Source: an uncultured Gammaproteobacteria bacterium
GTDB lineage: Bacteria > Patescibacteriota > Patescibacteriia > Magasanikbacterales > UBA922
Direction of reading: 5' to 3'
DNA length: 64,000 nt
NCBI GenBank assembly: GCA_964394405.1
Contig: CAYMVY010000001.1
Coordinates: 233,219-297,218, forward strand
In this document: in pieces, positions 23,501-57,250 of the stretch
Layout of the letters: each line of letters opens with the position of its first letter
How positions within the stretch are numbered: the stretch's first letter is position 1
Translations under genes and position numbers: made by a program
Notes under the pieces: generated by a model
Database searches by the model: none
Seen by the model: only the letters and a program-made list of their open reading frames with translations
Told to the model about the DNA's origin: nothing

Positions 23501-23624
23501 AACTCAAAACTAAAAACTCAAAAGTTAAAACAATAACTTAAATCTCAAAATTTATTTTGTGTCTGAGAGATTTTAGTTCTTTAGTTACAGCTTTGAGTTT
23601 TGAATTTTACGTTTTGAGTTTACC
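23501..23624. repeat. intergenic AAAACTCAAA-type imperfect palindromic repeat element (copy A)
   Basis: Left arm of AACTCAAAAC/AAAAACTCAAAAG units, right arm of CTTTGAGTTTT/CGTTTTGAGTTT units. Confidence 0.6.
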
Positions 23625-23645
23625 TCAATTTTGTCGTATACTTAG

Positions 23646-24356
23646 GTGACTATGCAACCCATCATCCAACACACTCTCTCAATTTACGAAACGATTCTTA
23701 ATCGAATTCCTCCTTTGGTACCGCGAAATATAAAGCAAAGTTTTGAAGTAGAATTGGATCGTCTTCATAGAACAAGAGATATTTCTCTTGATGAAGTGGA
23801 ACAGTCGATGGTAGAGCATGGTAGGAAGCTGTGGCCGTATATCAAAGCATTCGAAGAAATGGTCGCTGTCCATGAAAAAGCGATGGGTAATAAATTTCTT
23901 TTGCAGAAAGCTTCTCCAGGTCTAAGGAAAAAATACGCACTCGTGTGCGAACTCGGCGGAGAGTTTGGGCCCATGTGTTATGGCGCATCACTTGAGCATT
24001 TTGATCATGATGAAAGGCGCGAGTTGAATGAACTTCTTGTAGAATTGAAGCGCGATATACGTACGTTTGCGATGCAGGCAGTCCTGACCCATGATCGAAA
24101 GACGTATGAAGAGAAAATAGAATATTATGGGGGCATGGTTGAGGAAATCAATGCTATTATTGAATCACTACGAACTTTTGCTAGAAATCACGCAGAAAAT
24201 CACAGTAATTTGGCACGCGATGTGGAAAGCAAGATTACAGCGATCGAGCAGAGTTTGGTATTTCTAGGACCACCGATACATATTGAAGAAATCAGGAAAA
24301 CACCAGAATACTATCAAGGCAGACGAGAAGAGAGGAAAGTGCGATGGGGAATATAA
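23646..24356 (+). CDS. hypothetical protein
   Basis: 236-aa ORF, no recognisable motif. Confidence 0.4.
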   Translation: MTMQPIIQHTLSIYETILNRIPPLVPRNIKQSFEVELDRLHRTRDISLDEVEQSMVEHGRKLWPYIKAFEEMVAVHEKAMGNKFLLQKASPGLRKKYALVCELGGEFGPMCYGASLEHFDHDERRELNELLVELKRDIRTFAMQAVLTHDRKTYEEKIEYYGGMVEEINAIIESLRTFARNHAENHSNLARDVESKITAIEQSLVFLGPPIHIEEIRKTPEYYQGRREERKVRWGI

Positions 24357-24387
24357 ATAAAACCCTGTACTAGAAAGGTACAGGGTT

Positions 24388-25191
24388 TTATTTCCAGTTG
24401 AGACTGGTCGGAAGCTCAGAAGGTTTCAACACTGAAGTCTCGAAGTATTTATTTGAAAAAAGTATTGGAAATTGTTTTTGTAGATCTTCTTTGGGTTTTT
24501 CTGATACGAGAATTGCTTGCTCAGCAAAAATTTCAAAATCATCGCCGAGCAATAGAAACATGTCATGGGAAAACTCGGGGAGTGTATGCAGTATTTCATT
24601 GGGCTCATGTGACGTTATTTTATATCTCGGAATGAAAGGTTTGCCACCAACCTGGATTTTGTAACATGCGAGACCTATCGATGAGTGGTAGCCATAGATA
24701 TTTCGGTCATAACCATGGCTGACATGCGAGCAACCAAGAGAAATACTGTGAGAGTAAAAATAAGAGTCTGCGACAAAGCTCACACTAATGGGTATTTTTT
24801 CAGGAATTTCATGAGGAAAAACCTTGTATGCTGAAGCTAAGAAATCATTAGAAGGGGTAATACTAAAAATTATTCCGCCGAGATATTCATCATGTTTATA
24901 CAGCGAGACTACCTGATATCTTTTGCCAGATTTTTCTCCTTCAGCTATTCGTGCACGAACAGGGAATACTGTACCCCGCTCTTTTGAAAGAATGTTTTTT
25001 TCGTATAAGGGGATAAATCTATCGAGATAGTCAGAAGTTACATCCTCGATAATAAATCGGTATCCATATTGGGATAATAGCTGATCTGCCTTTTTAATAC
25101 GTGATGTTGTCTGTTTTCCAAACGCAGAAAATGGGTCATTATTCTGGAGATGGATTCTCCAGCTAATATATCGAGGAAAGGAAATATCCAT
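24388..25191 (-). CDS. hypothetical protein (first gene downstream of the ATP-grasp/PfkB genes)
   Basis: 267-aa ORF co-directional with and 10 nt from the ATP-grasp gene. No confident domain. Confidence 0.4.
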   Translation of the reverse strand: MDISFPRYISWRIHLQNNDPFSAFGKQTTSRIKKADQLLSQYGYRFIIEDVTSDYLDRFIPLYEKNILSKERGTVFPVRARIAEGEKSGKRYQVVSLYKHDEYLGGIIFSITPSNDFLASAYKVFPHEIPEKIPISVSFVADSYFYSHSISLGCSHVSHGYDRNIYGYHSSIGLACYKIQVGGKPFIPRYKITSHEPNEILHTLPEFSHDMFLLLGDDFEIFAEQAILVSEKPKEDLQKQFPILFSNKYFETSVLKPSELPTSLNWK

Positions 25192-25201
25192 ATAGGTATG
25201 T

Positions 25202-26485
25202 TTATCCCACTTCTATCTCAACCATCTGTTCCAGTCGTCGTATATCTGCGAGTAATTCTGATTTTTCTATATTAAACAGTAAGATGTTAAATACACTCGT
25301 ACCCCCATTTTTGGCATACGTACACATATCTCCAATCTTTTTATTCACACTAATCTCTTTAAATGATTGAAGCTCTTGTGCACGTTTGATACCTGTCAGT
25401 TTCGTGAGGTGCCCTTCTTTCTTTGCAAAAAATTTCATGTATGCGGTATACCCTTTTACCTTTCGTTTGATACGAACTTCTTCTGGAATGCGAATGAGAA
25501 TATCATTCATCGTGTGATTGATTCCATATGAGTGCTCGTAAATATGGTGGCGGTATCCTCCTGCCCGAGCAGCTACTTCTATGATTTTCCAACCTTTTTC
25601 TGTTTTCATGAGCTCGATGTGCACCACCGTACTCCGGAGCGCCAGGGCATGTACCGCTTGTCGCGCCACATCTCGAGCCGCAAGAACACTTTCGGTATTG
25701 AGATTGGTGGGAGACATCTGGATATATCCAAAGAAGTCATCAAAACCAATGGTGCGACCAGTCTGAATATGGACGAGAGGGGCGAATTGGACTTTACCCC
25801 GGGCTGATACATATCCATCAATCGAATACATATCTCCTTCCATGAATTGTTCTACCAGAACTTGGGGGGTCCAATTTCCTCCAGTTTCTTGGTATAGAGT
25901 ATTAATTTTTTTAAAAACTTTTTTCAGACTCGCCTCCAACTCTTCTTTGTGAAAACAGATAGTTACCAATCGGCTTGCTGCAAGACCAGTAGGTTTCACC
26001 ACTAGAGGGAAACCTACTTTTTGTTCAATTTTTTGGAGTGAGGCTTCGGTAGTATCGGTAACGACAGTATATGCCGGGGTAATTTTTTTATTATAGGTAA
26101 ATAGACGTCTACGCATACTCAATTTATCCGATGCCCATCGTAATGACTCACTAGTTGGTGTGCGAAGATAGGGAACAAAGGGGATAATACGCGCAAACAT
26201 CTCTATATAGTCCTCACCTCTACACGAAATTGCAAGTAGTTCATCTTCATATGGCAGAAGAGTTTCCTGGATTGAGCTTTCAGATAATGTGTTGCACGAT
26301 AATACCAGATCAATGTTTTTGATAATATCATCAGTCGGAATATTTCTTTTTTCTTTGAGGTCAATTAATAATGCAATACGAAATTTTCGTCTGCTTTGTT
26401 TTTCGTACGCTCGAATTGCTGTAATCATGTAGGGAAGAATTTTCCCTACGTAGAGGATAATATTCTGTCTATTTTTTACAGACAT
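25202..26485 (-). CDS. ATP-grasp domain carboxylate-amine ligase
   Basis: FPLVVKPTGLAASRLV...EQFMEGDMYSIDGYV...IIEVAARAGG pattern of ATP-grasp enzymes. Confidence 0.6.
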   Translation of the reverse strand: MSVKNRQNIILYVGKILPYMITAIRAYEKQSRRKFRIALLIDLKEKRNIPTDDIIKNIDLVLSCNTLSESSIQETLLPYEDELLAISCRGEDYIEMFARIIPFVPYLRTPTSESLRWASDKLSMRRRLFTYNKKITPAYTVVTDTTEASLQKIEQKVGFPLVVKPTGLAASRLVTICFHKEELEASLKKVFKKINTLYQETGGNWTPQVLVEQFMEGDMYSIDGYVSARGKVQFAPLVHIQTGRTIGFDDFFGYIQMSPTNLNTESVLAARDVARQAVHALALRSTVVHIELMKTEKGWKIIEVAARAGGYRHHIYEHSYGINHTMNDILIRIPEEVRIKRKVKGYTAYMKFFAKKEGHLTKLTGIKRAQELQSFKEISVNKKIGDMCTYAKNGGTSVFNILLFNIEKSELLADIRRLEQMVEIEVG

Positions 26486-26549
26486 ACCATGAATAAATAA
26501 TCAAAAAATGTTCGCTATTTGTACCACACAATAGCGTTTTTGTCAAGGA

Positions 26550-27521: not shown

Positions 27522-27527
27522 ATGAAA

Positions 27528-27845
27528 TTATTTCAGTTTTTTTATGTGTTCGAGGCGATTCGGGTCATGCTTGTGGAGTCCAGTCAGAATTTCAATAAAT
27601 TCAATCAGTGAATTGAGTCCAAAAGCGGCAAAGGCAATAACAAAGATGAGGTTCTGTATATAGAGAGCGTACGTGAGGAGGCATGCAGATCCAAGGACAA
27701 AGACTAGGTCCTGCCTCCGTTCAGCTTCAAGAAATACTCCATAGGAGAGAAGAATGATGCCGAGTCCTGCTACGACGTAAATAACTATCTGTAGTGTGGA
27801 TGAAGGTAGTGTGGGGAACCAAGACTCGAGAAGCATAGGTTTCAA
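27528..27845 (-). CDS. small integral membrane protein (3 TM)
   Basis: 105-aa hydrophobic ORF in the operon gap. Confidence 0.35.
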   Translation of the reverse strand: MKPMLLESWFPTLPSSTLQIVIYVVAGLGIILLSYGVFLEAERRQDLVFVLGSACLLTYALYIQNLIFVIAFAAFGLNSLIEFIEILTGLHKHDPNRLEHIKKLK

Positions 27846-27966
27846 ATTTAAAACTCAAAAGTAAAAACTCAAAATTTTTAAATACAATTTTAAGTATAGC
27901 ATACGATATACGACACATGGAATACGATACAAAATTTTGAGTCGTATTATGTCTATCGTGAGTCGT
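27846..27966. repeat. repeat element copy B
   Basis: AAAACTCAAAAGTAAAAACTCAAAA ... AAAATTTTGAGTCGT. Confidence 0.5.
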
Positions 27967-27972
27967 GTCAGT

Positions 27973-28941: not shown

Positions 28942-28952
28942 ATAGTAGTTTT

Positions 28953-29603: not shown

Positions 29604-30073
29604 ATTCCTTTTTCAAAATTTTCAATTTTTTCAAGTCTCTGAACATGGCGTTCTTGGCCTGGGAAATCTGTCTCAAGCCAGCGCTTTACAATTGCCATAG
29701 CAAAGTCTTCGGATAAGTGATCAGAAGCGAGGCATAAAATATTGGTATTATCATCAGTTACCATAGATTCTGCAGCAGCAATATTGTATCCAATACCTGC
29801 GCGGACACCTTTGACCTTATTTGCTGCCATACACACGCCCACTCCATTGCGACAAATGAGGATTCCACGCGCATTTTCTGCAACTACCCGAGTAGCTAGA
29901 GGAAAAGCATAGTCTGGATAATCATCATCCTCAACATGGTCCATAGGGCCAAGATCAGTAACAGGACGGGAGAGTTCATTTTCAATAAAACGAACCAAAC
30001 GCTTTTTGAGTGCGTATCCACCGTGGTCTCCCGAAATATAGAGTGCCCCAGAATACATAGAAATAAAAGTCAA
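29600..30073 (-). CDS. rpiB: ribose-5-phosphate isomerase B
   Basis: GILICRNGVGVCMAANKVKGVRA, the RpiB/LacAB signature. Confidence 0.8.
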   Translation of the reverse strand: MTFISMYSGALYISGDHGGYALKKRLVRFIENELSRPVTDLGPMDHVEDDDYPDYAFPLATRVVAENARGILICRNGVGVCMAANKVKGVRAGIGYNIAAAESMVTDDNTNILCLASDHLSEDFAMAIVKRWLETDFPGQERHVQRLEKIENFEKGI

Positions 30074-30112
30074 AATTCAAAGCTTAAAACTCAAAACCAT
30101 TTGAGTTGAATT
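30064..30112. repeat. repeat element copy C (short)
   Basis: AAAAGTCAAAATTCAAAGCTTAAAACTCAAAACC-ATTTGAGTTGAA. Confidence 0.45.
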
Positions 30113-30178
30113 GTAGTTAGTTAGTATAAGAAAGTATACCGCCTTTGGATACTTAGGTAAAGAGACTGTCCACATAAT

Positions 30179-31974: not shown

Positions 31975-32185
31975 CAATTGTATCAGCGTATTTTCTGCAA
32001 TCAACAGAAATTCTCTATATGAGAAGCGCTAGAGGAAGAAATCCGCGAATAGTGGAAAGTAGAACCTCTCGGGTATGCCCGTAATAGCTGCAAATAAGTG
32101 CTACCAATCGTAGAAGCAGGATGGTACCGTCCCGACTCAGTCGGGATTCCTGCAGATAGGGTAGCTTTTTGTTTTTTTAGTCTCC
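31975..32185 (+). promoter_or_regulatory. candidate T-box-like leader/attenuator upstream of ileS
   Basis: AGGATGGTACCGTC (32118-32131) resembles the T-box AGGGTGGNACCGCG. Nested terminator GCAGGA..CCCGAC-TCAG-GTCGGG..TCCTGC, then CTTTTTGTTTTTTT. About 280-nt leader before ileS ATG 32255. Confidence 0.35.
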
Positions 32186-32254
32186 AATCTTTACTTTTAG
32201 ACTTTTGCCGTGCCTGCCGGCAGGCAGGACTTTACGACTTTTGACTATTTTTAT

Positions 32255-35140
32255 ATGCCGTATAATGCACAAGAACAAGAGCTTGAAATATTGAAACATT
32301 GGGATACAACCGATGCGTTTCGAAAATCTGTAGAAAATCGACCGCTTGATAGACAGTATGTTTTTTATGATGGTCCTCCCTTTGCAACAGGTTTACCTCA
32401 TTACGGACATTTTGGACCTAGTGTGATGAAAGATGCCGTACCTCGCTACTGGACGATGCGGGGGCGACGCGTTGAGCGTGTATGGGGATGGGATTGTCAT
32501 GGGCTTCCGATTGAAAATATTGTTGAAAAAGAACTGGGGATCAAAAGTAAAAAAGAAATTGAAGAAATGGGTGTTGCGGAATTTAACGAAAAATGTCGCG
32601 GAAAAGTTTTGAGCTATGTAGGTGAATGGGAAAAAACGATTCATCGTCTTGGTCGCTGGGTAGATATGAAAAATGCCTATCGCACCATGGATAATAATTA
32701 CATGGAGTCAGTGTGGACCGTATTCAAACAACTTTGGGACAAAGATCTGATTTATCATGGATACAAACCCATGCATATCTGCCCTCGATGTGAGACAACT
32801 TTGTCACAGCAGGAAGTCACTGAAGGATATAAAGATATCAAAGATATTTCGGTAACGGCGAAGTTTAAAGTGAAAAATGCTAAAGAAAAATTAGGAATTG
32901 ATGGTGATGTATTTATTCTTGCATGGACGACAACTCCATGGACATTGCCAGGAAATGTATTACTCGCAGTGGGAAGTGAAATCGAATATTCACTCGTTAA
33001 AAGCGGGGAGGAATATTATATTCTTGCATCAGAATTAGTCGAAGTTAATTGTGAAGAAAAAGAATATGAAGTGGTAAAAAAACTTTCAGCTGATGAATTA
33101 GTCGGTCTCGAGTATGAACCACTATTTCCATACTTTGCAGATAGTAAAAATTCTTTCCGAGTTGTCACTGCGGATTTTGTGACTACTGAAGATGGGACTG
33201 GTGTAGTGCATCTCGCACCTGCATTTGGTACTGATGATTATGAGGTGTTCAAAAAAGAACATGTACCGTTTATTCAACATGTAAAAATGGATGGGACGTT
33301 TATTGATAAAGTGATAGATTTTGCGGGTATGCATGTGAAGCCGGCAGCAGATCATATGGCAACTGATGTGGAAATAGTGAAATGGCTGGCGCACAATGGA
33401 AAATTATTTTCAAAGAAAAAATATGAACACAGCTATCCACATTGTTGGCGTTGTGATACTCCACTCATTAATTATGCGACGAGTAGTTGGTTTGTAAATG
33501 TTACGAAGATCAAAGCAAAAGCATTGAAACAAGCAGAAAAAATCAATTGGTCTCCTGAGCATATTAAGGAAGGAAGATTTGGAAAATGGCTTGAAGGAGC
33601 TCGTGATTGGTCAATCTCACGACAGCGTTTTTGGGCTACGGTAATCCCTGTCTGGCAGAGTGCTGATGGCGATTCAATATGTATTGGCTCTATGAAAGAG
33701 CTTGAAGAATTATCTGGAAAAAAAGTGGATGATTTGCACAAGCATATTGTCGACACCATTACATTTGAAAAAGATGGTAAGACCTATACGCGGGTGCCTG
33801 ACGTACTCGACACCTGGTTTGATTCAGGTTCGATGCCCTATGCAGAAGTACATTATCCATTTGAAAATAAAGAAAAATTCGAAGCAAGTTTCCCCGCAGA
33901 ATTTATTGCGGAATCTCAGGACCAAACTCGCGCGTGGTTTTATTATTTGCATGTACTTGCTGTAAGTTTGTTTGGAAAACCAGCGTATAAAAATGTGATT
34001 GTCAACGGAATTGTGCTTGCAGAAGACGGGAAAAAGATGAGTAAGAAATTACAGAATTATCCAGATCCTAATACACTTCTTGAAAAATATGGAGCAGATG
34101 CACTTCGTTACTATTTGTTAACATCTCCAGTCATGATGGCAGAGAATCTGAACTTCTCAGAAGCAGGAGTGCGAGAAATGTATAATAAACTCGTGAATAC
34201 ATTGTGGAATGTATGTGAGTTTTATGAACTCTTTGCAGAGAAAGGTAAAAGCAAAAACGTAAAAGTAAAAAGAGAGAATATTTTAGATCGCTGGATTATA
34301 ACAAAGTTGAATATATTGGTTAAAGAAGTCACTGAGGGGATGGAAGCGTACAAACTTGCTGAGGCGAGTCGTCCGATTGTGGAATTTGTGACTGAATTAT
34401 CGCAGTGGTACGTACGACGTAGTCGCGATCGTTTCAAAGGTGATGATGCGAGTGATAAAGAAGCTGCGCTTCAGACACTTCAGACTGTGCTTCTAACTCT
34501 TTCAAAAGTCATGGCACCATTCACTCCATTTATTGCAGAAACACTGTATCAGAAAGTAGGAGGAGAGATGGAGAGTGTGCACCTCGAAGATTTTCCCGTG
34601 TATAATAAAAAAGAAGTTGATGGGGGTGTACTTGAAGAAATGACACATGTACGAAAAGTGGTGGAAATGGGTCTTGCACTTCGTGCGTCAGCTGGGATAA
34701 AAGTACGCCAGATATTATCAAAACTATATTTCAGTGGCGTCACACTTTCAGATGCGGCCAAGGAAATCGTCGCAGATGAAATGAACGTAAAAAAAGTTGT
34801 AGAAGAAATGCCCGGAACATCTGAGTTCATTACTCTGAAAGAAGACGGAAGCGTAACAGTTGGTCTAGATACTCAAATGACAGATGAATTGAAAAAAGAA
34901 GGATTGGTTCGAGAAATCATTCGCGCAGTGAATCAGATGAGAAAAGAGCAGGGGCTTACGGTGGAGGATATGGTTACACTGTATTGGCATACCGAAGATA
35001 CACAATTACAGTCAGTGTTTGAAAATTATGGAAAAGAAATTGCAACTGGAGTATTAGCCTATGAAATGGTAGAAAAGAACAATGAGGGTAAGTTAGAAAT
35101 TGAAGGAGTTACATTATCATTAACTATTGAAAAGAAATAA
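32255..35140 (+). CDS. ileS: isoleucyl-tRNA synthetase (type with KMSKK, no C-terminal Zn finger)
   Basis: HIGH-type PHYGH motif, KMSKKLQNYPDP, CP1 editing domain. 961 aa from Met 32255. Confidence 0.9.
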   Translation: MPYNAQEQELEILKHWDTTDAFRKSVENRPLDRQYVFYDGPPFATGLPHYGHFGPSVMKDAVPRYWTMRGRRVERVWGWDCHGLPIENIVEKELGIKSKKEIEEMGVAEFNEKCRGKVLSYVGEWEKTIHRLGRWVDMKNAYRTMDNNYMESVWTVFKQLWDKDLIYHGYKPMHICPRCETTLSQQEVTEGYKDIKDISVTAKFKVKNAKEKLGIDGDVFILAWTTTPWTLPGNVLLAVGSEIEYSLVKSGEEYYILASELVEVNCEEKEYEVVKKLSADELVGLEYEPLFPYFADSKNSFRVVTADFVTTEDGTGVVHLAPAFGTDDYEVFKKEHVPFIQHVKMDGTFIDKVIDFAGMHVKPAADHMATDVEIVKWLAHNGKLFSKKKYEHSYPHCWRCDTPLINYATSSWFVNVTKIKAKALKQAEKINWSPEHIKEGRFGKWLEGARDWSISRQRFWATVIPVWQSADGDSICIGSMKELEELSGKKVDDLHKHIVDTITFEKDGKTYTRVPDVLDTWFDSGSMPYAEVHYPFENKEKFEASFPAEFIAESQDQTRAWFYYLHVLAVSLFGKPAYKNVIVNGIVLAEDGKKMSKKLQNYPDPNTLLEKYGADALRYYLLTSPVMMAENLNFSEAGVREMYNKLVNTLWNVCEFYELFAEKGKSKNVKVKRENILDRWIITKLNILVKEVTEGMEAYKLAEASRPIVEFVTELSQWYVRRSRDRFKGDDASDKEAALQTLQTVLLTLSKVMAPFTPFIAETLYQKVGGEMESVHLEDFPVYNKKEVDGGVLEEMTHVRKVVEMGLALRASAGIKVRQILSKLYFSGVTLSDAAKEIVADEMNVKKVVEEMPGTSEFITLKEDGSVTVGLDTQMTDELKKEGLVREIIRAVNQMRKEQGLTVEDMVTLYWHTEDTQLQSVFENYGKEIATGVLAYEMVEKNNEGKLEIEGVTLSLTIEKK

Positions 35141-41573: not shown

Positions 41574-41647
41574 AGAACAAGGGTAAATTCATTACAAATA
41601 TGAGAGTAGTATACCGACTTTTGGGGAGATAAGCAAGAGGAGGGTGT

Positions 41648-41745
41648 AGTCAAAAGTCGAAAGTCATAAAGTCCAAAAGTCAAAGTTCAACCTGTATTTT
41701 TGTATTTACTTTCGACTTTGTGACTTTATAGACTTTCTGACTCCT
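41648..41745. repeat. repeat element copy D (AAAGTC-unit variant)
   Basis: GTCAAAAGTCGAAAGTCATAAAGTCCAAAAGTCAAAG ... ACTTTCGACTTTGTGACTTTATAGACTTTCTGAC. Confidence 0.5.
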
Positions 41746-41751: not shown

Positions 41752-41780
41752 TTGCCAAAATCAAAACCCTGTGCTACACT
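41752..41780 (+). promoter_or_regulatory. promoter TTGCCA-17-TACACT for rpsA
   Basis: Read directly. Confidence 0.4.
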
Positions 41781-41851: not shown

Positions 41852-43012
41852 ATGGCACAAACACAGAATTTTGAAGAATTATTAAAGGATTACTTTGCTC
41901 AAATCCCGCAAGTTGGGGATTTGGTAAAAGGCCGCGTTATTTCAATCGATCGAGGAGAGGTACGAGTTGACATCAATGGAATTATCATTGGTGTAGTTCG
42001 TGGTGAAGAGCTATTTAGCGAATCGAAAGAGTTTGCACATATCAAAATCGGGGATGAGGTAGAAGCGACCGTTGTCGAAGATGAGAATGAGAACGGAGAA
42101 ATGGAGCTTTCATTCCGAGTTGCCGGACATCGCCTCGTGTGGGAGCGTATGGCAAAATATGTAAAGGAAGGTACTGTAATCAAGGCAAAGATTATCCAGG
42201 CAAACAAAGGTGGTCTTATGCTTCAGGCAGACGCACTCACTGGATTCATGCCAGTTTCTCAGCTCAATCCTGATAACTACCCACGTGTACAGGGTGGAGA
42301 CAAAAATAGAATTCTTGAACACTTAAAAAAGTTTGTGGGAACTACCATCAAAGTAAAAGTACTTGATGCAAATCCTGATGACGAAAAACTTATCTTCTCT
42401 GAAAAAGAAGTATGGGAAGAAGAACAGAAAAACATCCTCGACTCATATAAGGTAGGAGACAAAATCGACGGTGAAGTATCAGCGCTTACTCCATTCGGGG
42501 CATTCGTCAAATTTGGTGAAGGTCTCGAGGGTCTTGTCCATATTTCAGAAATCGTGTGGCAGAGAATTGATCATCCAAAAGATATTTTGAAAGTGGGTGA
42601 CAAAGTAAAAGCACAGATTATTGACCTCAACAAATCAAAAATCTATCTCTCGCTCAAGCGTCTCGTAGACGATCCATGGAAATCAGTAAAAGAGAAATAT
42701 ACGATTGGGCAGATTGTAAAAGGAGAGGTACACAAAGTTGAATCATTTGGTCTCATGGTCAAGCTCGATAATGAAATTCATGGGCTTGCGCACATCTCTG
42801 ATCTTTCAGAGAAGCGTGTAGCAGATCCAAAAGAACTATTGGTCAAGTTTGAAATCGGAAAACCATACAACTTTGAAATCATCTCTATCGAACCAACTGA
42901 GCACCGCCTCGGACTCCGACTCGAAGGAGTGAAGAAGCGAGAAGCGAAGAAAGAGGATGAAAAAGTTGAAGAGAAAAAGGAAGAAAAACCAAGCGAAGAA
43001 AAAACAGCGTAA
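41852..43012 (+). CDS. rpsA: 30S ribosomal protein S1 (four S1 repeats)
   Basis: Repeated S1 OB motifs (GDLVKGRVISI, VIKAKIIQANKGGLML, DKIDGEVSALTPFGAFVKF, QIVKGEVHKVESFGLMVKL). Terminator CCCCACA..TGTGGGG at about 43040-43072. Confidence 0.8.
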   Translation: MAQTQNFEELLKDYFAQIPQVGDLVKGRVISIDRGEVRVDINGIIIGVVRGEELFSESKEFAHIKIGDEVEATVVEDENENGEMELSFRVAGHRLVWERMAKYVKEGTVIKAKIIQANKGGLMLQADALTGFMPVSQLNPDNYPRVQGGDKNRILEHLKKFVGTTIKVKVLDANPDDEKLIFSEKEVWEEEQKNILDSYKVGDKIDGEVSALTPFGAFVKFGEGLEGLVHISEIVWQRIDHPKDILKVGDKVKAQIIDLNKSKIYLSLKRLVDDPWKSVKEKYTIGQIVKGEVHKVESFGLMVKLDNEIHGLAHISDLSEKRVADPKELLVKFEIGKPYNFEIISIEPTEHRLGLRLEGVKKREAKKEDEKVEEKKEEKPSEEKTA

Positions 43013-44984: not shown

Positions 44985-45004
44985 AGTAAATTAATGTCTT
45001 ACAC

Positions 45005-45036
45005 AAAAACATCCCGACTCAATCGGGATGTTTTTG
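45005..45036 (+). terminator. intrinsic terminator ACATCCCGA-ctcaa-TCGGGATGT + T-run after ftsH
   Basis: Perfect 9-bp stem. Same family as 1254-1285. Confidence 0.6.
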
Positions 45037-45043
45037 TGTATCT

Positions 45044-45144
45044 CAAAACGTAAAACTCAAAGCTCAAAACTGAAGCTAAAAACTCAAAAGTTTTAAGATT
45101 TAAGTTATCGTTTTGCGTTTTGACATTTGAGTTTTGAGTTACGC
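45044..45144. repeat. repeat element copy E
   Basis: CAAAACGTAAAACTCAAAGCTCAAAACTGAAGCTAAAAACTCAAAAG ... CGTTTTGCGTTTTGACATTTGAGTTTTGAGTTACG. Confidence 0.6.
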
Positions 45145-45219
45145 ATTAAGCATATTTATTCCGTGTACAGAGTATCTTATGGTATACTATTACCACTACT
45201 ATCATCTAACCGTATTTGT

Positions 45220-46221
45220 ATGCAGGAGCCGACCCTTCGCGATGTATTTAGTGCAAGTTGGAAATTGACCAAGCGCCACAAAGGACTATGGATTTTGGGA
45301 TTATTTGCCCTCGTATTTGGTCAGCTGGGGATTCTTGACGTGGTCACTGGTGTTGTCAAAGGAACTGCACTCCAGGGAGCCTCGGGAATATCGTCGCAAC
45401 TCATCTATATTTTTAGCCCCTCAACATTTGCAGAGATAGGGAGTGCGCTTAATTTTTCATTTGACTCATGGGCAGCATTTGCCTGGCTATTGGTAATGAT
45501 TTTTGCGCTCGGAGTAGCTGTTATCGTCGTGGGGGCGATTGCACAAGGAGGAATTGTGCATGCAGCTACACTTTCAATCGAACATGGGTTGAAATCAGTA
45601 GAAAAATTTCATGAATCATGGCATGCAGGAGCGCGCCATGCATCATCAATTCTGGTGTTAAATATTGTAAAAAAATGCCTATTATTTGCGTTATCACTCA
45701 TGGTGGCCGCATCTGCATTTGCTGCGCTGGTGTATGGAAGCACAATCTCAATTTTGGTTTTTATCTTGGTTTTTGTACTTGCAATAATGCTCGGAATGAC
45801 GCTCTCAATGCTCACACTCTTTACTGTCGGATATCTAGTGGTTGAGAATAAATCTCTCTTTCAGGCAATACGACTAGGGTGGAAATTGTTGATAAAACAT
45901 TGGGTAGTATCTTTTGAAGTAGGATTAATTTTGTTGCTGTTTAATGTAGTAGTTTTTGTACTTCTGCTGGTCGGTGTATACGTATTGGTGGTCCCAAGTC
46001 TGGCACTTAATGCATACGGAGCATTAATTGGAAGCACTGCACTGTCTCAGTTTGCCATATCAATGGGGGTAATACTATTCGTGTCACTATCAGCAATTAT
46101 TGGCTCCATTTTTACTGTATTTGTGACCACTGCATGGACCTATCTTTTTGCAATTATGCATCACTGGGGATTCAGAAGCAGAATCCATGCATTCATTACT
46201 CGATTCCACTCCCATAAGTAG
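45220..46221 (+). CDS. polytopic membrane protein (about 8 TM), unknown function
   Basis: Very hydrophobic 333-aa ORF immediately upstream of pilB. Start at the internal Met after TATACT. Confidence 0.45.
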   Translation: MQEPTLRDVFSASWKLTKRHKGLWILGLFALVFGQLGILDVVTGVVKGTALQGASGISSQLIYIFSPSTFAEIGSALNFSFDSWAAFAWLLVMIFALGVAVIVVGAIAQGGIVHAATLSIEHGLKSVEKFHESWHAGARHASSILVLNIVKKCLLFALSLMVAASAFAALVYGSTISILVFILVFVLAIMLGMTLSMLTLFTVGYLVVENKSLFQAIRLGWKLLIKHWVVSFEVGLILLLFNVVVFVLLLVGVYVLVVPSLALNAYGALIGSTALSQFAISMGVILFVSLSAIIGSIFTVFVTTAWTYLFAIMHHWGFRSRIHAFITRFHSHK

Positions 46222-49180: not shown

Positions 49181-49209
49181 TTGACCGCAAATCGTATTTT
49201 CAGTATAGT
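49181..49209 (+). promoter_or_regulatory. promoter TTGACC-17-TATAGT for the thrS leader
   Basis: Read directly, immediately after the stop of the upstream gene. Confidence 0.5.
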
Positions 49210-49215
49210 TTCTCT

Positions 49216-49395
49216 ACTAAAGCGCAATTACGAGAACCTGCCCAGCTCCGACGTTACGTCGGAGCATGGTACCACTCTCGGAGCTTTATACAAATTTGAA
49301 AAAGGTAAATAACGGGTGGAACCGTCCTGACATAACAGTCTAGACCCCGGCGCTATCGAGAGTGAAGTCTCAGGTGCTGGGGTTTTTGTTTAAGT
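49216..49395 (+). promoter_or_regulatory. candidate T-box-like leader upstream of thrS
   Basis: AACGGGTGGAACCGTCC (49311-49327) matches the T-box core GGGTGGNACCG. Terminator CCCCGGCGC..GTGCTGGGG + TTTTTGTTT at 49343-49391. ACC threonine codon present in the upstream hairpin region. Confidence 0.4.
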
Positions 49396-49468
49396 AAAAG
49401 TGCAAAAGGAAAAAGTCAAAAGAAAATTCTCAATCTTTTTACTTTTACCTTTTTACTTTTTACTTGTG
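49395..49468. repeat. repeat element copy F (AAAAGT-unit variant)
   Basis: GTAAAAGTGCAAAAGGAAAAAGTCAAAAG ... TTTTTACTTTTACCTTTTTACTTTTTACTTG. Confidence 0.45.
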
Positions 49469-49473: not shown

Positions 49474-51219
49474 ATGGAAAAAGAACAACTTGAACATCTA
49501 CGCCATTCCGCTGCACATCTACTTGCTGCAGCAGTGGAAGAATTATACCCACATGCAAAGCGAACGATTGGTCCGGCTATTGAGGATGGGTTTTATTATG
49601 ATTTCGACTTTGGGGTTGAAAAAATTAATGATGAAGATTTGAAGAAAATTGAGAAGCGAATGGGTGAAATCGTCAAACATTGGAAAGAGTTTGAACACCG
49701 AGAAGTGACTGCTGACGAAGCAAAAGAGTTTTTCAAAGACAATGAATATAAGAAAGAATTGATTGAGGAATTCGCAGGCGAGGGCGCAACACTTACGTTC
49801 TATACTGCAGGAAAATTTACTGACTTATGTCGTGGTGGACATAGTGAGAATCCTTCAAAAGAACTCCGCAATTTCAAATTGTTGAGTGTGGCAGGAGCAT
49901 ACTGGAGAGGGGATGAAAAAAATAAAATGTTGACTCGAATTTATGGCACTGCATTTCCTACCAAGGATGAATTGCAGAAATATCTGGAAATGCGAGAAGA
50001 AGCAAAGAAGCGAGATCATCGAAAAATCGGTAAAGACCAGGAATTATTCCTGATTGATGATCGAGTAGGAAAAGGTCTTGTGATGTGGCTCCCAAATGGA
50101 ACCATAATTCGAAATGAGATTGAAAAATTTGCGACTGAAATGGAAGAAGCATATGACTATCAGAGAGTAGTCACCCCGCATATGGCAAAGGAGGATCTGT
50201 ACCTCACTTCAGGACACCTGCCATACTATAAAGAAGGAATGTACCCTGCAATGGTCATGGATGATGGCACCTACTATCTCCGCGCCATGAATTGCCCCCA
50301 TCACCATATCATCTATGGATCAAGTCCTCGCAGTTATCGTGAACTTCCACTTCGACTTGCTGAATATGGCACGGTGTATCGCAATGAATTGTCAGGAACC
50401 CTTGCAGGCCTGCTTCGCGTACGCGGACTTACCATGAATGACGCGCATATCTACTGTACCAAAGAGCAGATCAAAGATGAGTTCAAACGAGTGATGGAAT
50501 TAACCATGAATTATTTCAAGACGTTTGGACTTGAAAATTACTGGTTCCGCCTTTCAAAATGGAGTCCGGAACACAAAGACAAATATATTGATCAACCAGA
50601 AAATTGGGAAATGGCTGAGGCTGTGCTCCGCGATGTATTGACTGAGATGCATGTAACATTTGTGGAGGCTGAAGACGAGGCTGCCTTCTACGGACCAAAA
50701 GTGGATGTACAGTTCAAATCAGTAATAGGTCGCGAGGAAACCATGTCGACCATACAACTCGACTTCCTTGCACGCGAGAGATTCAAATTGAACTATATTG
50801 ATGAAGAAGGAAAAGAAAATAACCAAGTATTTGTCATTCATCGGGCACCTCTGTCGACCCACGAGAGGTTCACTGCATTCCTCATTGAGCATTATGCCGG
50901 AATCTGGCCTACCTGGCTCTCTCCGGTCGCTGTAGCGCTCGTACCAGTGTCTGAGAAGCATGTCGTGGGAGCTGAATCACTTGCGAGAGAATTTCGGGCA
51001 GAGGGAATCAGAGTATCTATTGATAGAGCTGACGAAACAGTAGGGAAGAAAATCAGAAAAGCTGCTCAGAGCAAGGTTCCGTATATGCTGGTCATTGGTG
51101 ACAAAGAACTCGAAGGTGGGGATTTCATGGTCCGTATGCGAGGGGTTGAAGAACAGGTGAGTATTTCAAAGAGTGAGTTTGTCGCGAAGGTGAAGGCTGA
51201 AATTAGAGAGAGGAAGTAA
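49474..51219 (+). CDS. thrS: threonyl-tRNA synthetase (no N-terminal TGS domain)
   Basis: HxxxH editing-domain motif HSAAHLL, class II motifs, zinc site RAMNCPHH, C-terminal anticodon-binding domain. Confidence 0.85.
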   Translation: MEKEQLEHLRHSAAHLLAAAVEELYPHAKRTIGPAIEDGFYYDFDFGVEKINDEDLKKIEKRMGEIVKHWKEFEHREVTADEAKEFFKDNEYKKELIEEFAGEGATLTFYTAGKFTDLCRGGHSENPSKELRNFKLLSVAGAYWRGDEKNKMLTRIYGTAFPTKDELQKYLEMREEAKKRDHRKIGKDQELFLIDDRVGKGLVMWLPNGTIIRNEIEKFATEMEEAYDYQRVVTPHMAKEDLYLTSGHLPYYKEGMYPAMVMDDGTYYLRAMNCPHHHIIYGSSPRSYRELPLRLAEYGTVYRNELSGTLAGLLRVRGLTMNDAHIYCTKEQIKDEFKRVMELTMNYFKTFGLENYWFRLSKWSPEHKDKYIDQPENWEMAEAVLRDVLTEMHVTFVEAEDEAAFYGPKVDVQFKSVIGREETMSTIQLDFLARERFKLNYIDEEGKENNQVFVIHRAPLSTHERFTAFLIEHYAGIWPTWLSPVAVALVPVSEKHVVGAESLAREFRAEGIRVSIDRADETVGKKIRKAAQSKVPYMLVIGDKELEGGDFMVRMRGVEEQVSISKSEFVAKVKAEIRERK

Positions 51220-51270: not shown

Positions 51271-51285
51271 GTAAGATTGTTTGTT

Positions 51286-52245: not shown

Positions 52246-52307
52246 ACCATGTATGTATTAGAATATTGCACTAGTATAGAGATAAAATTGATTTTTTACA
52301 AGATAGT

Positions 52308-52351
52308 GGTTAGAACAAAAAACCATGCTTCATCAGCATGGTTTTTTGTTT
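52308..52351. repeat. direct repeat 1 (hairpin-containing) flanking the GC-rich cassette
   Basis: GGTTAGAACAAAAAACCATGCTtcatcAGCATGGTTTTTTGTTT. 22+13 nt identical to 53069-53114. Confidence 0.7.
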
Positions 52352-52423
52352 GTTCGTAGGGTTGACAAAATGGATATTTTGTAGTAGCGTGCGTCTAACG
52401 CATGGGACTATAAGGAGGTATAT

Positions 52424-52939: not shown

Positions 52940-53068
52940 CATTTGGACGAGCTTAATGTCTAGAAAAATGTAGCTCGGAACCAGAAGCAGAATTCGCCGG
53001 CGGAAGTCGGTAGTGCGCCCCACACTCAAAAAGGGGCATGCTAAACATGTTTGTAAATTTTGCAAATA

Positions 53069-53114
53069 GGTTAGAACAAAAAACCATGCTGATGAAGAAT
53101 GGTTTTTTGTTTAT
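53069..53114. repeat. direct repeat 2 flanking the GC-rich cassette
   Basis: GGTTAGAACAAAAAACCATGCTgatgaagaATGGTTTTTTGTTT. Its loop is the reverse complement of the repeat-1 loop. Confidence 0.7.
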
Positions 53115-53122
53115 ACAAATTT

Positions 53123-54442: not shown

Positions 54443-54453
54443 ATTTTTTTGTA

Positions 54454-54506
54454 CGTCATCCCCGTGAAAACGGGGATCTTAGATTCCCGCTTCCGCGGGA
54501 ATGACG
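54454..54506. other. compact structured element: outer stem CGTCAT/ATGACG enclosing two 6-bp hairpins (GNRA GAAA loop; TTCC loop)
   Basis: CGTCAT CCCCGT-GAAA-ACGGGG ATCTTAGAT TCCCGC-TTCC-GCGGGA ATGACG read directly. Lies in the 78-nt gap between nth and the methyltransferase gene. Confidence 0.45.
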
Positions 54507-54520
54507 CAGAGGGGCTAAAG

Positions 54521-55159
54521 TTAATACAATTCTTTCTTTTTTAATATCTGCACAATCGGGCAGTCTACATGTTTACACCGTGCAGGACAATATTTCCGTC
54601 CATATTCAATCATCCGATTCGTCAACTGAAACCACTCACTCTTCGGAAACAATTTTTTCAAATCTTTCTCAATTTTTTCAGGAGTGCTTTGTTTCGTTAG
54701 CTTGAAAACTTTTGATAATCGCTGTACATGCGTATCGACTGCAATCCCTTCAACAATATTATGCGCATTTCCGAGGACTACAATCGCAGTTTTACGTCCG
54801 ACTCCAGGGAAAGACATCATTTCCTCAACTGTTTTTGGTAGCTTTCCTTTGAAATCCAGATGAAGCTTCCGGGCAGTTGCGAGTATGTGTTTTGCCTTGG
54901 TTTTGTAATAATTTATAGACGAAACATCCTTGGTAAAAACCGCATCTTTTGCTTCGATGTAATGCGTGAGCTTTGGATATTTTTTAAACAGTGCTTTTGT
55001 AACCACATTCACCTGTTTATCAGTTGTTTGAGCTGATAACATGACTGCAAATAGTAATTCAACATGATTCCCAAACTCTAATATAGTTTTTGACTCAGGG
55101 AAAAGCTTTTTGAGTTCTCGCAAAACTATATTCGCGCGCTGGCGGTATAGGGGGTCCAT
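54521..55159 (-). CDS. nth: endonuclease III
   Basis: HhH-GPD motif plus 4Fe-4S cluster loop CPARCKHVDCP at the C-terminus. Confidence 0.85.
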   Translation of the reverse strand: MDPLYRQRANIVLRELKKLFPESKTILEFGNHVELLFAVMLSAQTTDKQVNVVTKALFKKYPKLTHYIEAKDAVFTKDVSSINYYKTKAKHILATARKLHLDFKGKLPKTVEEMMSFPGVGRKTAIVVLGNAHNIVEGIAVDTHVQRLSKVFKLTKQSTPEKIEKDLKKLFPKSEWFQLTNRMIEYGRKYCPARCKHVDCPIVQILKKKELY

Positions 55160-55215
55160 AGTTGATTTATCATAACAGTTCTCCTATACTACAGACAGAA
55201 ATCTTAAAAAGCAAG

Positions 55216-55941
55216 TCTATGGCTATCGAATACAATAAGGAGTATATCCATCATAGTAACCCAGGAAGCGCATCGTTGATCCGGGAAATTGTGTTTGGAA
55301 TGGAAGATGGAATGGTCTCGACTTTGGGTTCAGTCACGGGTATTGCTGCTGCAACCCAGGATCCGTTTACGACCGTACTTGCAGGACTGGTTATCATCTC
55401 GGTTGAATCAATTTCCATGGGAGTAGGATCATATTTATCCAATAAGTCAGAACGCGAAATTGATGAGCGTAAGATTTTTGAGGAACGCGAGGAAATCAAG
55501 AATCATCCGGAAGAAGAACGAGAAGAGCTTCGCGACATGTATGTGCACGATGGTTGGCCCAAGGATTTGGCAGAGAAAATGGCAGATGCTGCAAAAGCAA
55601 ATCCTGAGATTATGTTGAAAGAAATGGCATTTCGAGAACTCGAGGTTATTCCCGAGGGTTTGGGAAGTCCGATTCGTAACGGATTTGCAATGCTTATATC
55701 ATATATTATTGGTGGTGCCATACCATTAACACCATACCTAGTATTGCCTGTTGAAAAGGCAATTCCACTTTCAATCATAATTACTCTCATAGGACTGTTT
55801 ACTTTGGGAGTGGTGACTACTCGATTCACGAAACGTAGTTGGTGGAAAGCAGGACTTGAGATGCTTGCACTTGCGAGCGCAGCGGCCGCAATTGGGTATT
55901 TTGTAGGACAAGCGGTGGACACGTGGTGGTTGAAAAAATAA
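55216..55941 (+). CDS. VIT1/CCC1-family membrane protein (putative Fe/Mn transporter)
   Basis: VFGMEDGMVSTLGSVTGIAAA motif, acidic middle loop, C-terminal TM bundle. Start at the internal Met preferred. Confidence 0.6.
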   Translation, partial: SMAIEYNKEYIHHSNPGSASLIREIVFGMEDGMVSTLGSVTGIAAATQDPFTTVLAGLVIISVESISMGVGSYLSNKSEREIDERKIFEEREEIKNHPEEEREELRDMYVHDGWPKDLAEKMADAAKANPEIMLKEMAFRELEVIPEGLGSPIRNGFAMLISYIIGGAIPLTPYLVLPVEKAIPLSIIITLIGLFTLGVVTTRFTKRSWWKAGLEMLALASAAAAIGYFVGQAVDTWWLKK

Positions 55942-56011
55942 CAGCGTCAGAGGGCGTATATACAAGAGAGCCCGGTCACTCGAGAAGGAGGCCGGGCTTT
56001 TTGGTGCAGTG

Positions 56012-56287
56012 TCACCAGTGGTGGTGTTTGCGGGATGGGGCGATGAGAAAAGAGGCGATGAGACATCCAAATCCCACGAAGAAGGTATGGTCGGTCTCGG
56101 TGTTCGTCCGCAGTTCGTTCGCGCTGTCTTGGTCAATGGCAGTCGCAATGATCACGATCCCAGCGATGAGAAGCAAGACTGCCAGCACGGTAGCAAGAGT
56201 GGGGAGTTTTGACACTGAAAACATGCAGAATCCCTCCAACATAAAGGTCTGTAGAAGTTTATACCGCACTGCCACTACCATTGTCAA
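56012..56287 (-). CDS. candidate small 2-TM protein in a GC-elevated patch
   Basis: Hydrophobic 70-91-aa ORF (LPTLATVLAVLLLIAGIVIIATAI...FFVGFGCLIASFLIA). Overlaps a junk-looking plus-strand ORF. Confidence 0.3.
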   Translation of the reverse strand: MTMVVAVRYKLLQTFMLEGFCMFSVSKLPTLATVLAVLLLIAGIVIIATAIDQDSANELRTNTETDHTFFVGFGCLIASFLIAPSRKHHHW

Positions 56288-56290
56288 TGA

Positions 56291-57139
56291 TTACGCTATT
56301 GAGAAGATATTTTTTTGTTTTGTTATCATTCCTTCTTTGGTGAGTCTAAGTAACACCTCATGTATATGTGATTCATCGTATTCTTCAAGATAGAGATCAG
56401 AGAGCGATTCAAGTGTGGTGTGCCCTTTTGAAATGTCGCGGAGGATCATGCCACGCAATTTTCTATTTGACCCTTCAAATTTACTTTGTTTCGAATAATG
56501 TTTACTTCGTCTGCTTGGATTTTTGTTTGTCTCTTTCAGCCACGTACCATAATCCATAAGCGCATTGTACCAGTCGCGTGGATTTTTTTTATCGAGAGCT
56601 GCCTCTACATAGGGCAATAATTCTTTGTCAGTCACTTCAGTTTTATCACCAAAAAATTCATGTATAAATACACTTCGTATATTTGTTTCAATAAAGACAC
56701 TTGGGTAATTATAGGCGTATGCTGCGATTGATCCAGCAGTGTGGGGACCAATCCAGGGGAGACCCACTAATTTTTCTGGAGTTTTGGGTAATTTTCCTTT
56801 GTATTCAGAAATAATAATTTCAGCAAGTTTTTTCAATCCCATTGCGCGACGATTGTACCCCAGTCCCTGCCACACGGCGAGAATATCCTTAAAAGGAGCT
56901 TTTGCTAATGCTTCAAAATTAGGAAATGTTTTGATAAATAATGTAAATTTCTCTACCACTCTCGGAGCCTGTGTTTGTTGCAACATGATTTCAGAAACTA
57001 CTATTTTGTACGGCGTAATTCCTTTTCTCCAGGGGAAGTCACGCTTATTTTTGTGGTAGTAAGTGTAGATTTTATTTTGAAATTGTTGAATCTGTTTTTT
57101 GGATAGGGGAGATTTCATATTACGTAACTCAAAACTCAA
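56291..57139 (-). CDS. HhH-GPD DNA glycosylase, MutY/EndoIII-like, lacking Fe-S cysteines
   Basis: DFPWRKGITPYKIVVSEIMLQQTQAPRV...WQGLGYNRRA matches the MutY N-terminal core. No Cys cluster in the C-terminal half. Confidence 0.55.
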   Translation of the reverse strand: MSFELRNMKSPLSKKQIQQFQNKIYTYYHKNKRDFPWRKGITPYKIVVSEIMLQQTQAPRVVEKFTLFIKTFPNFEALAKAPFKDILAVWQGLGYNRRAMGLKKLAEIIISEYKGKLPKTPEKLVGLPWIGPHTAGSIAAYAYNYPSVFIETNIRSVFIHEFFGDKTEVTDKELLPYVEAALDKKNPRDWYNALMDYGTWLKETNKNPSRRSKHYSKQSKFEGSNRKLRGMILRDISKGHTTLESLSDLYLEEYDESHIHEVLLRLTKEGMITKQKNIFSIA

Positions 57140-57250
57140 ATGTCAAAACTTAAAACTGTAACTAAAAACTTAAAACCAATACTCTATCTAAATTAAGTTT
57201 TAAAATTTACGTTATAGTTTTGAACTTTGAGTTTTACGTTTTGAGTTTTA
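57121..57250. repeat. repeat element copy G
   Basis: CGTAACTCAAAACTCAAATGTCAAAACTTAAAACTGTAAC ... GTTTTGAACTTTGAGTTTTACGTTTTGAGTTTTAG. Positions 57123-57149 are the reverse complement of 45117-45143. Confidence 0.6.

Follow-up and report, generated by a model that had tools for sequence, protein, structure and literature searches.

Are the heptamer arrays that lie between the genes of some Patescibacteria functional punctuation, serving in termination, as promoters or in leaders, or are they tolerated selfish DNA? The question is raised by a 64-kb stretch of DNA (hereafter the window) from contig CAYMVY010000001.1 (positions 233,219 to 297,218; assembly GCA_964394405.1), deposited as an uncultured Gammaproteobacteria bacterium and placed by GTDB in the Patescibacteriota (Magasanikbacterales, UBA922), in which seven intergenic elements, named by their start positions (e23, e27, e30, e41, e45, e49, and e57; Table 1), are built from tandem 7-nucleotide (nt) units, usually with an inverted arm. 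Heptamer-array hairpins of this kind make up a class of small, dispersed repeats between genes that is met repeatedly in the sampled Patescibacteria loci. The reading favored here, tentatively and at somewhat less than even confidence, is that they act as "punctuation" elements resembling repetitive extragenic palindromes (REPs), some copies of which have been co-opted as promoter-upstream or 5′-leader modules.

Tandem Repeats Finder (TRF), run blind over the full window, returned period-7 arrays at all seven intergenic sites at which an initial annotation had noticed short-unit arrays, and its sole further period-7 call was a two-copy coding array at 42933. All seven lie at the gene boundaries that the annotation gave, with the genes correctly named. 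The unit had been described as 9–11 nt long; since TRF finds period 7 at every site, it is instead a heptamer, locally of 8 nt and drifting between 7 and 9 nt in e41, with CTCAAAA, GTCAAAA, GTAAAAA, and variants of these as the recurring forms. Array copy number ranges from 3.6 to 8.7 and unit matches from 63 to 83% across the seven sites, so degenerate that the near-perfect identity of slippage-prone simple sequence repeats (SSRs) is not reached. At five of the seven sites there are two arrays with complementary units, the arrangement of the inverted pairs described in Xanthomonas, and e57, e23, and e45 are the longest inverted repeats of the window in an unbiased scan (e23 ranking as I3). 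When each element was folded against 200 dinucleotide-preserving shuffles on both strands, with RNA and with DNA parameters, six of the seven gave z-scores of −3 to −7 on both strands with RNA parameters (−3.7/−4.8 for e23), the excess of e27 being somewhat weaker with DNA parameters. The condition under which the annotation would have put the motif down to general AT-rich composition, no excess of complementarity over shuffled sequence, therefore fails; e30, which is mostly one-armed, folds marginally (z −1.4 to −3.4).

Table 1. Heptamer-array elements and adjoining features (positions within the window).
Feature	Position	Strand	TRF period-7 arrays	Character
e23	23501-23624		23501-23550; 23592-23621	AAAACTC hairpin; A-rich arm 23501-23550, T-rich arm 23580-23621
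Promoter-like sequence	23614-23642	+		TTGAGT (23614-23619)-17-TATACT (23637-23642); the T-rich arm of e23 contributes its last heptamer as the −35 box
e27-left	27846-27880	-	27850-27874	One-armed T-rich array (U-rich in the mRNA), 5′ untranslated region of the 102-aa gene
Promoter of the 102-aa gene (27528-27836)	27893-27901	-		Extended −10 promoter TGCTATACT (motif scan)
e27-inner	27900-27968	-		ACGACTC/ACGAYAC heptamer palindrome; inverted repeat I5
e30	30064-30112	-	30065-30097	T-rich, mostly one-armed array with a short stem, rpiB 5′ untranslated region
e41	41648-41745		41648-41684; 41714-41742	AAAGTC hairpin between divergent promoters; z −6.2/−6.9
e45	45042-45146	+	45042-45089; 45110-45140	AAAACTC hairpin, reference orientation
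Putative T-box-like thrS leader	49181-49390	+		Promoter TTGACC-17-TATAGT (49181-49209), invariant ACGGGTGGAACCGTC (49312-49326), terminator
e49	49392-49468	+	49392-49422; 49435-49465	AAAGTA/AAAGTC hairpin, thrS 5′ untranslated region
e57	57121-57250	-	57126-57184; 57193-57250	AAAACTC hairpin, in the e45 orientation relative to transcription; inverted repeat I1

The elements do not form the single family that had been proposed. At least three unit families are present, namely AAAACTC (e23, e45, e57, and parts of e27 and e30), AAAGTC/AAAGTA (e41 and e49), and ACGACTC (inner e27), and full-length homologous copies, in both orientations, can be demonstrated only for e23, e45, and e57, which align over 105–130 bp, e45 on the plus strand matching e57 and e23 on the minus strand. 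The arms of these three are distinct conserved sequence types, arm X being CTCAAAACGTAAAAYTCAAAG... and the complement of arm Y being CGTAACTCAAAACTCAAATGTCAAAAC. Paralogues of the AAAACTC family inside the genome are as similar to each other as orthologues are between genomes, and no locus-wise clustering of orthologues against paralogues was found in this family. Similarly, the ACGACTC element e27-inner is 80% identical to a non-orthologous site in a related locus, L003:16195-16275 (related loci are labeled L002, L003, L124–L134, etc.). An eighth copy (L130:1190-1291), of the AAAGTC type, is found ∼190 bp beyond the left end of the window. The gap that holds it is divergent, and the T-rich arm of the copy ends ∼10 bp before the TTGACA-17-TGCTATAGT promoter of rpsF-ssb-rpsR. 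Native left and right arms form duplexes with a mean of −25.8 kcal/mol, compared with −33.9 kcal/mol for chimeras between copies, the strongest of which joins the left arm of e57 to the right arm of e45 (−52.8 kcal/mol). As chimeras pair better than native arms, complementarity is a property of the unit and the family; mismatches between arms are inherited family features, and the arms have not been homogenized against each other. Arm-to-arm correction and locus-specific selection of the stem were considered and rejected, native duplexes being weaker than chimeric ones.

The recurrence of such arrays was assessed in a survey of the candidate phyla radiation (CPR) that covered 81 loci of diverse Patescibacteria (1.25 Mb, 87% coding). 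Period 7 is the commonest tandem repeat there, with 90 arrays compared with 35 of period 6 and 38 of period 8, and 71% of the period-7 arrays are intergenic. Inverted pairs account for 30 of the 90, while six paired arrays occur at period 8 and none at periods 5, 6, or 9–12. The units are lineage-specific (CATAAGC, AGATAAC, AGTAAAT, and others), and elements abut the upstream stop codon in 17 of 42 cases, compared with 9.1 expected under random placement (P = 0.0025). In addition, a 20-mer from arm X finds inverted arrays of a similar A4N3 kind in metagenome contigs whose GC contents range from 0.29 to 0.65; it has no match in viral contigs, and a viral origin was set aside.

Relatives of its FtsH and TrxB put the window in Patescibacteria close to Candidatus Magasanikbacteria, and the nearest genomes sampled reach ∼90% identity in FtsH. 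Six slots of the window were compared across three to six genomes. Upstream of rpsA, the window and L003 carry the same element, whose architecture recurs in L002 with units of the GCCTAAAA type. Downstream of ftsH, AAAACTC elements in the window and L002 are poorly conserved (55–70%) and L003 retains a T-rich arm only. The thrS leader holds the same hairpin in the window and L002, an ACGACTC hairpin homologous to e27-inner in L003/L132 and L131, an ATACAAA-type hairpin in L134, and nothing in L133. Between the exonuclease stop codon and the next promoter (the e23 slot), two genomes have the AAAACTC hairpin and three have three other families, and after trxB (the e27 slot) hairpins of two families occur, with other sequence in L124 and L126; in both slots the element is replaced in L128 by a canonical terminator, compact and GC-rich in the former. 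In the xth-mutY gap (e57), all five genomes compared have a heptamer array that starts from the stop codon; the arrays are of four kinds, with three different hairpins and, in two genomes, A-rich arrays with a single arm. The slots thus stay filled while their contents are exchangeable and can sometimes be dispensed with, and position is conserved between species as sequence and length vary, which is also the behavior of the Xanthomonas repeats.

Some occupants have hardly changed. Between the window and L002, e49 differs by 2 substitutions in ∼77 nt and is locally the most conserved sequence (95–97% identity in 40-nt windows), with thrS coding sequence at 72–95% and the leader terminator at 50–57%. 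Similarly, e41 is 88–97% identical in L003, with most rpsA coding sequence at 78–85%. Four-fold degenerate sites in ftsH, rpsA, and thrS are 43–63% identical, and the probability of so few differences at the four-fold rate is ∼10^-12 to 10^-14. Conservation so far above four-fold sites shows purifying selection on the primary sequence of e41 and e49, and the same applies to the leader array of the 102-aa gene in the e27 slot, which ends in ...TTTGAAAYYT-ATG and is conserved in five of six genomes downstream of a promoter kept as TGYTATACT in six of six. At least three copies are accordingly held more strongly than the neighboring coding sequence.

Occupied gaps number 7 of the 36 in the window, five of them tandem and two divergent; none of the eight convergent gaps, which with one exception carry clean bidirectional terminators in a terminator scan, is occupied, although this depletion is non-significant both in the window and across the CPR loci and was not retained as a result. 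Shine-Dalgarno (SD)-like sequence precedes only ∼3 of 61 genes, and a TATACT −10 box, often extended to TGnTATACT, recurs 12–35 nt upstream of ATG, examples of the extended form outside the element gaps being 1366-1374 and 63615-63623(−). Of the arms found no more than 120 nt upstream of a start, seven in all, every one is T-rich when read in the sense direction (p = 0.016), and 7-nt-phased T-tracts outnumber A-tracts upstream of starts by 17 to 4 in the window; this signal vanishes with the seven elements masked, so the window holds no hidden extra arrays. The distance to the start codon differs among copies, the T-rich arrays of e27-left, e30, e49, and e57 ending 5–13 nt from ATG and those of e23, e41, and e45 being placed otherwise.

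Three elements occupy the 3′ end of a transcription unit. Element e23 starts directly after the TAG stop codon of an exonuclease gene (22832-23500), with AACTCAAAAC following the stop, and its far arm supplies the −35 box of a promoter-like sequence (Table 1) whose −10 box is only 9 nt from the ATG at 23652, which makes the mRNA nearly leaderless; the −10 box and ATG context are kept in five relatives. Element e27 is a composite of the ACGACTC palindrome, which begins 4 nt past the trxB stop codon and abuts the promoter of the 102-aa gene, that promoter itself, and the one-armed T-rich array, which ends ∼13 nt before the ATG at 27836. Element e57 fills the xth-mutY gap, from the TAA stop codon (57248-57250), again followed immediately by AACTCAAAAC, to 2 nt before the ATG of the mutY-like gene (57118), with its predicted stem ending ∼7 nt before that ATG. 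Canonical terminators occur elsewhere in the window, including after ftsH and rpsA, and the scan found none in the gaps of e23, e27, and e57, where e23, e27-inner, and e57 are the only candidate 3′ structures.

The other copies are placed differently. Element e30 ends 5 nt before the rpiB ATG (30058-30056), downstream of a conserved promoter, GGTATACT, at 30133-30140(−), and its array is present in four of six genomes with variable copy number. Element e41 is flanked by a leftward −10 box near 41608-41614 and by the rpsA promoter (TTGCCA at 41752-41757 and TGCTACACT, an extended −10 box, at 41772-41780), ending 6 bp before the rpsA −35 box. Element e45 sits between the ftsH intrinsic terminator (45000-45040) and an extended −10 box, TGGTATACT (45180-45188), of a gene that starts at 45220; as a perfect canonical terminator already precedes it, termination does not require it. 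Element e49 comes after the leader terminator (49343-49388) and ends 5 nt before the AUG of thrS (ATG at 49474); since a promoter and that terminator stand upstream of it, transcription of thrS must run through it, and it cannot terminate efficiently. The thrS leader itself, of ∼180 nt, is probably T-box-like to judge from its layout, which is conserved in at least five genomes and in which the CGGG of the ACGGGTGGAACCGTC motif offers the 5′ strand of the terminator an alternative, antiterminator-type pairing partner; the Rfam T-box model does not call it, even in permissive mode. A second T-box-like leader, likewise without an Rfam T-box call, precedes ileS (31985-32209) and comprises a promoter, the motif GGATGGTACCGTC, and a terminator, after which, immediately ahead of the start codon, comes a short run of T-rich heptamers (ATCTTTA CTTTTAG ACTTTTG). 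Within the ileS coding region, a period-14 A-rich, Lys-rich repeat at 34241-34271 (AAACGTAAAAGCAA; L003 equivalent at 254-286) resembles AAAGTA units and is coding rather than an intergenic element.

From position and conservation, the favored punctuation reading may be spelled out as follows. Each element, in which degenerate 7-nt units (A4N3 here) form one array and an inverted T-rich array comes next, occupies the free slot between the stop codon or terminator of one unit and the next promoter or start codon. On its upstream side, a hairpin that begins at the stop codon could cap the upstream mRNA, replacing or adding to an intrinsic terminator. On its downstream side, the T-rich arm could provide an A/T-rich upstream region and −35-like TTGAC/TTGAG boxes, as a promoter-upstream sequence at e23, at e41, at the copy before rpsF, and, in L002 and L003, at e45, or, where transcribed, a U-rich leader next to the AUG in a genome almost without SD sequences (e27-left, e30, e49, and e57). 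The elements probably arose by amplification of units in 7-nt steps and by copy-and-paste of whole elements in the manner of REPs and REP doublets forming hairpins (REPINs), most copies being replaceable; those at rpsA (e41) and thrS (e49), together with the 102-aa leader array, are held by purifying selection and have presumably been co-opted. Among the roles suggested initially, an UP-element-like promoter module would suit e23, through its −35 box, and e41 and the rpsF copy, which stand just upstream of promoters; a terminator or insulator would suit e23, e27, and e57, which occupy the slot used by a terminator in relatives, but neither e49 nor e45.

Several observations weigh against this reading. 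No single role fits all copies, for e49 is read through, e45 is redundant, and e41, in a divergent gap, needs no terminator; neither e49, inside a leader, nor e41 stands where a transcription unit ends. In the terminator scan, no element forms a compact GC-rich stem with a U-tract, except for a weak inner stem in e23. Compensatory double substitutions were absent from the orthologue pairs of e41 (window and L003) and e49 (window and L002), and since native arms are also no better paired than chimeras, selection on the stem itself is unproven. Across the CPR loci, proximity to start codons is not above random placement, and arms T-rich toward the start are non-significantly in excess (12 compared with 8), the bias being significant only in the window genome; the one-armed arrays before mutY in L131 and L132 are A-rich. 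Finally, the empty thrS-leader slot of L133 makes the element dispensable there.

Heptamers as such are not new, contrary to the initial impression that the periodicity was undescribed. Intergenic GGGAATC heptamers in Xanthomonas form 70–75 inverted pairs per genome that are capable of stem-loop or cruciform formation, and their position and single or inverted-pair status are kept between species as length and sequence vary (Rehm et al., 2015; PMC4692102). These pairs, tandem intergenic heptamers often in two convergent arrays, are the closest architecture to the present elements. However, their units are G-rich, form G-quadruplexes, and are dominated by one unit per genome, whereas the units here are A4N3/AT-rich and several families coexist; unlike the Xanthomonas repeats, the elements also show whole-element homology across loci, family swaps within slots, and copies conserved above coding sequence. 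Cyanobacterial heptamers share with them short tandem heptamers, many dispersed intergenic copies, and lineage-specific units, but are mainly one-armed direct arrays with other units in another phylum. The tandem heptanucleotides of Calothrix are known as short tandemly repeated repetitive (STRR) sequences. Three of them are mentioned for Calothrix PCC 7601 in passages of Rehm et al. that cite the earlier work, and the GGGGAYT repeats of Nostoc include few inverted pairs (PMC4692102).

A further likeness is to the TAACTGA direct repeats found upstream of starts in Beggiatoaceae, cyanobacteria, and Bacteroidetes, which were proposed to aid SD-independent translation in the manner of a U-rich leader (MacGregor, 2015; PMC4679880). 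These arrays end a few nt before AUG in low-SD genomes, occur among others at ribosomal-protein genes, and differ between strains by indels in 7-nt steps, a layout that matches the one-armed arrays e27-left and e30 and, in e49 and e57, the right arm. They are direct, perfect, unstructured, and of one unit, whereas the present arrays are degenerate, usually have an inverted arm, and in several cases lie upstream of promoters. The function of the Xanthomonas and Nostoc repeats and of the TAACTGA repeats was left unresolved (PMC4692102; PMC4679880). Heptamers go unmentioned in the Patescibacteria papers that a literature search listed. What is new here is the A4N3/AT-rich units, the coexistence of families, the homologous whole copies, the family swaps within slots, and the selection on some copies. 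Intrinsic terminators resemble the elements in occupying the slot after a stop codon and before the next promoter and in the order of A-rich side, hairpin, and T-rich side, but the element stems are long, AU-rich, and bulged, without a GC-rich base or terminal U-tract.

The earlier description of dispersed imperfect palindromes like REPs or MITEs (miniature inverted-repeat transposable elements), at gene boundaries and with internal short-unit periodicity, is borne out. One alternative is possible though rather unlikely: the elements may be purely selfish and non-autonomous, mobilized in trans like REPINs or MITEs and surviving wherever a self-folding insert is harmless, with promoter and terminator effects incidental. 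REPs, REPINs (Bertels and Rainey, 2011; PMC3116915), and MITEs are likewise extragenic hairpins of 70–130 bp with two inverted halves, found in both orientations, in several "flavors" per genome, and without evident coding capacity. Homologous copies with conserved asymmetric arms at unrelated sites and in both orientations, paralogues as similar as orthologues, the presence of one family at non-orthologous sites of different species, the turnover of families within slots, one of them empty, and an assembly break inside e45 are all expected of mobile DNA. Target-site duplications, named in the annotation as a sign of mobility, were not seen in the directly read flanks of e23, e45, and e57, nor was the combination of terminal inverted repeats and target-site duplication that marks MITEs; the absence is nonetheless compatible with Y1 transposition of the IS200 or REP-associated tyrosine transposase (RAYT) type, which leaves no target duplication. 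A relative does encode such a domain: L133:7039-7638(−), directly downstream of thrS, specifies a protein of 199 aa whose IS200-like Y1_Tnp domain scores 29 bits (cutoff 23). This gene is not flanked by heptamer arrays, so that a link to it was rejected, and no Y1 gene (the RAYT type) or other transposase is present in the window or next to any element, in an analysis that covered the 64 kb and ∼4 kb more of a contig of at least 597 kb. Against mobility also stand the relatives, in which no clean boundary between filled and empty sites was found and whole gaps differ, and the arms, which are degenerate arrays rather than the conserved palindromic cores that define REPINs (PMC3116915) and lack their compensatory changes. 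The conservation of e49, e41, and one leader array beyond synonymous sites at fixed loci is, moreover, unlike that of host-neutral DNA.

That same conservation invites a different explanation, which is unlikely: the heptads may be sites for a protein that reads them, either on RNA, where a cold-shock-domain (CSD) protein with its OB fold, S1, or an RNA recognition motif (RRM) protein would tune SD-independent translation, or on DNA, where a cooperative binder would tune the promoters of translation genes, the hairpin partner being an anti-sequence or a second, oppositely oriented set of sites. Primary sequence, beyond structure, is conserved at e41 and e49; the three AAAGTC-family copies are at rpsA, rpsF-ssb-rpsR, and thrS; U-rich arrays end close to AUGs in an SD-less genome; and family switching within slots could reflect changed reader specificity. 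The same idea was put forward for TAACTGA, and Bacillus subtilis CspB reportedly binds as one protein per heptamer (PMC4679880). The window also encodes a 65-aa CSD protein (63718-63915, minus strand) and a 92-aa RRM_1 protein (58127-58405, minus strand), both candidate binders of single-stranded, U-rich, or heptamer sequence; S1 is encoded at 41852-43012. However, units with 63–83% matches and a spacing of 7–9 nt are poorly suited to cooperative phased binding, several families coexist in one genome, and the copies share no common molecular level, e41 and the rpsF copy being apparently untranscribed and e49 lying deep in a transcript. The CSD and RRM_1 genes are syntenic in L131–L134, and the RRM gene has an upstream region of ∼190 nt that carries a TGCTATAGT promoter.

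The least probable alternative, neutral replication slippage in AT-rich spacers with occasional fold-back duplication and with neither function nor mobility, could draw on period 7 being the most frequent SSR period across the CPR sample, with units that differ by lineage, on the variable copy number of orthologous leader arrays, on arrays that expand right up to stop codons, and on the attribution of a bacterial heptamer-SSR excess to polymerase slippage in passages of Rehm et al. (PMC4692102), but it is very improbable and already largely refuted, for e23, e45, and e57 by multi-unit sequences common to distant loci, impossible by independent origin, and for e41 and e49, as for the leader array, by strong conservation, while the units are too degenerate for active slippage and two assemblies of the organism show no length difference in the elements.

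Other candidates were tried and rejected. A contingency-locus (phase-variation) role fails on the same degeneracy of units and identity of assemblies. Clustered regularly interspaced short palindromic repeat (CRISPR) and tandem interspaced guide RNA (TIGR) arrays have a repeat-spacer period of ∼28–37 nt and cas or tas genes (for TIGR, as set out in parts of PMC12045711), whereas the period here is 7 nt and no cas or tas genes are present among the flanking open reading frames (ORFs) scanned. Rfam at gathering thresholds matched no element in the whole window, where only two tRNAs reached threshold, and in E-value mode around e49 it returned only sub-threshold look-alikes of miRNA precursors and no family.

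The elements also have practical consequences, as they break assemblies and mislead start-codon calls. An independent assembly (Logan contig L001) is 100% identical to the window and ends inside e45 at 45139, and four ORFs had been over-called into elements, with corrected starts at 27836, 30058, 45220, and 57118. In the trxB-downstream slot of a relative's metagenome-assembled genome, a run of N stands at L124:11070-11190, with a promoter and leader array present in duplicate on its flanks.

A few further features of the region were recorded. At ∼6700-13640 (L130:8183-15118), at least nine consecutive paralogues that match PF18895 (T4SS_pilin), interrupted by one solute-binding-protein gene, form a tightly packed block without heptamer elements. 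The interval 19068-19332 has a strong promoter (TTGACA-17-TGGTATAGT); between it and the gene at 19333, ∼230 nt hold a small ORF, for a hydrophobic peptide of ∼35–40 aa, together with a terminator-like hairpin, and in relatives a 42-aa gene is annotated in comparable surroundings. Approximately 600 bp right of the window end (L129:1207-1857) are a HEPN_AbiU2 gene of abortive-infection type and an Amidase_2 gene. Small bAvd / 23S_rRNA_IVP four-helix-bundle genes were seen in relatives at L128:8959-9330 and L127:12157-12561, the former inserted between rpiB and rpe; such genes are absent at the corresponding place in the window.

For the biology of the group, a more far-reaching and still less probable idea than that of protein sites at individual loci is that Patescibacteria may use a selection-maintained "heptad code" at transcription-unit boundaries, read unit by unit by a small protein, for which the candidates would be CSD, S1, or RRM proteins if the target is RNA and a protein that binds heptads cooperatively if it is DNA. 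Such a code would couple promoter strength and mRNA ends to SD-independent initiation, and unit sequence and reader would co-evolve, which would explain why families are swapped within slots between sister species and are nearly invariant within a lineage. With their minimal genomes, scarce intergenic space, and near absence of SD sites, Patescibacteria are a favorable test bed, and the elements described here offer a compact system for testing what intergenic heptamer repeats do.

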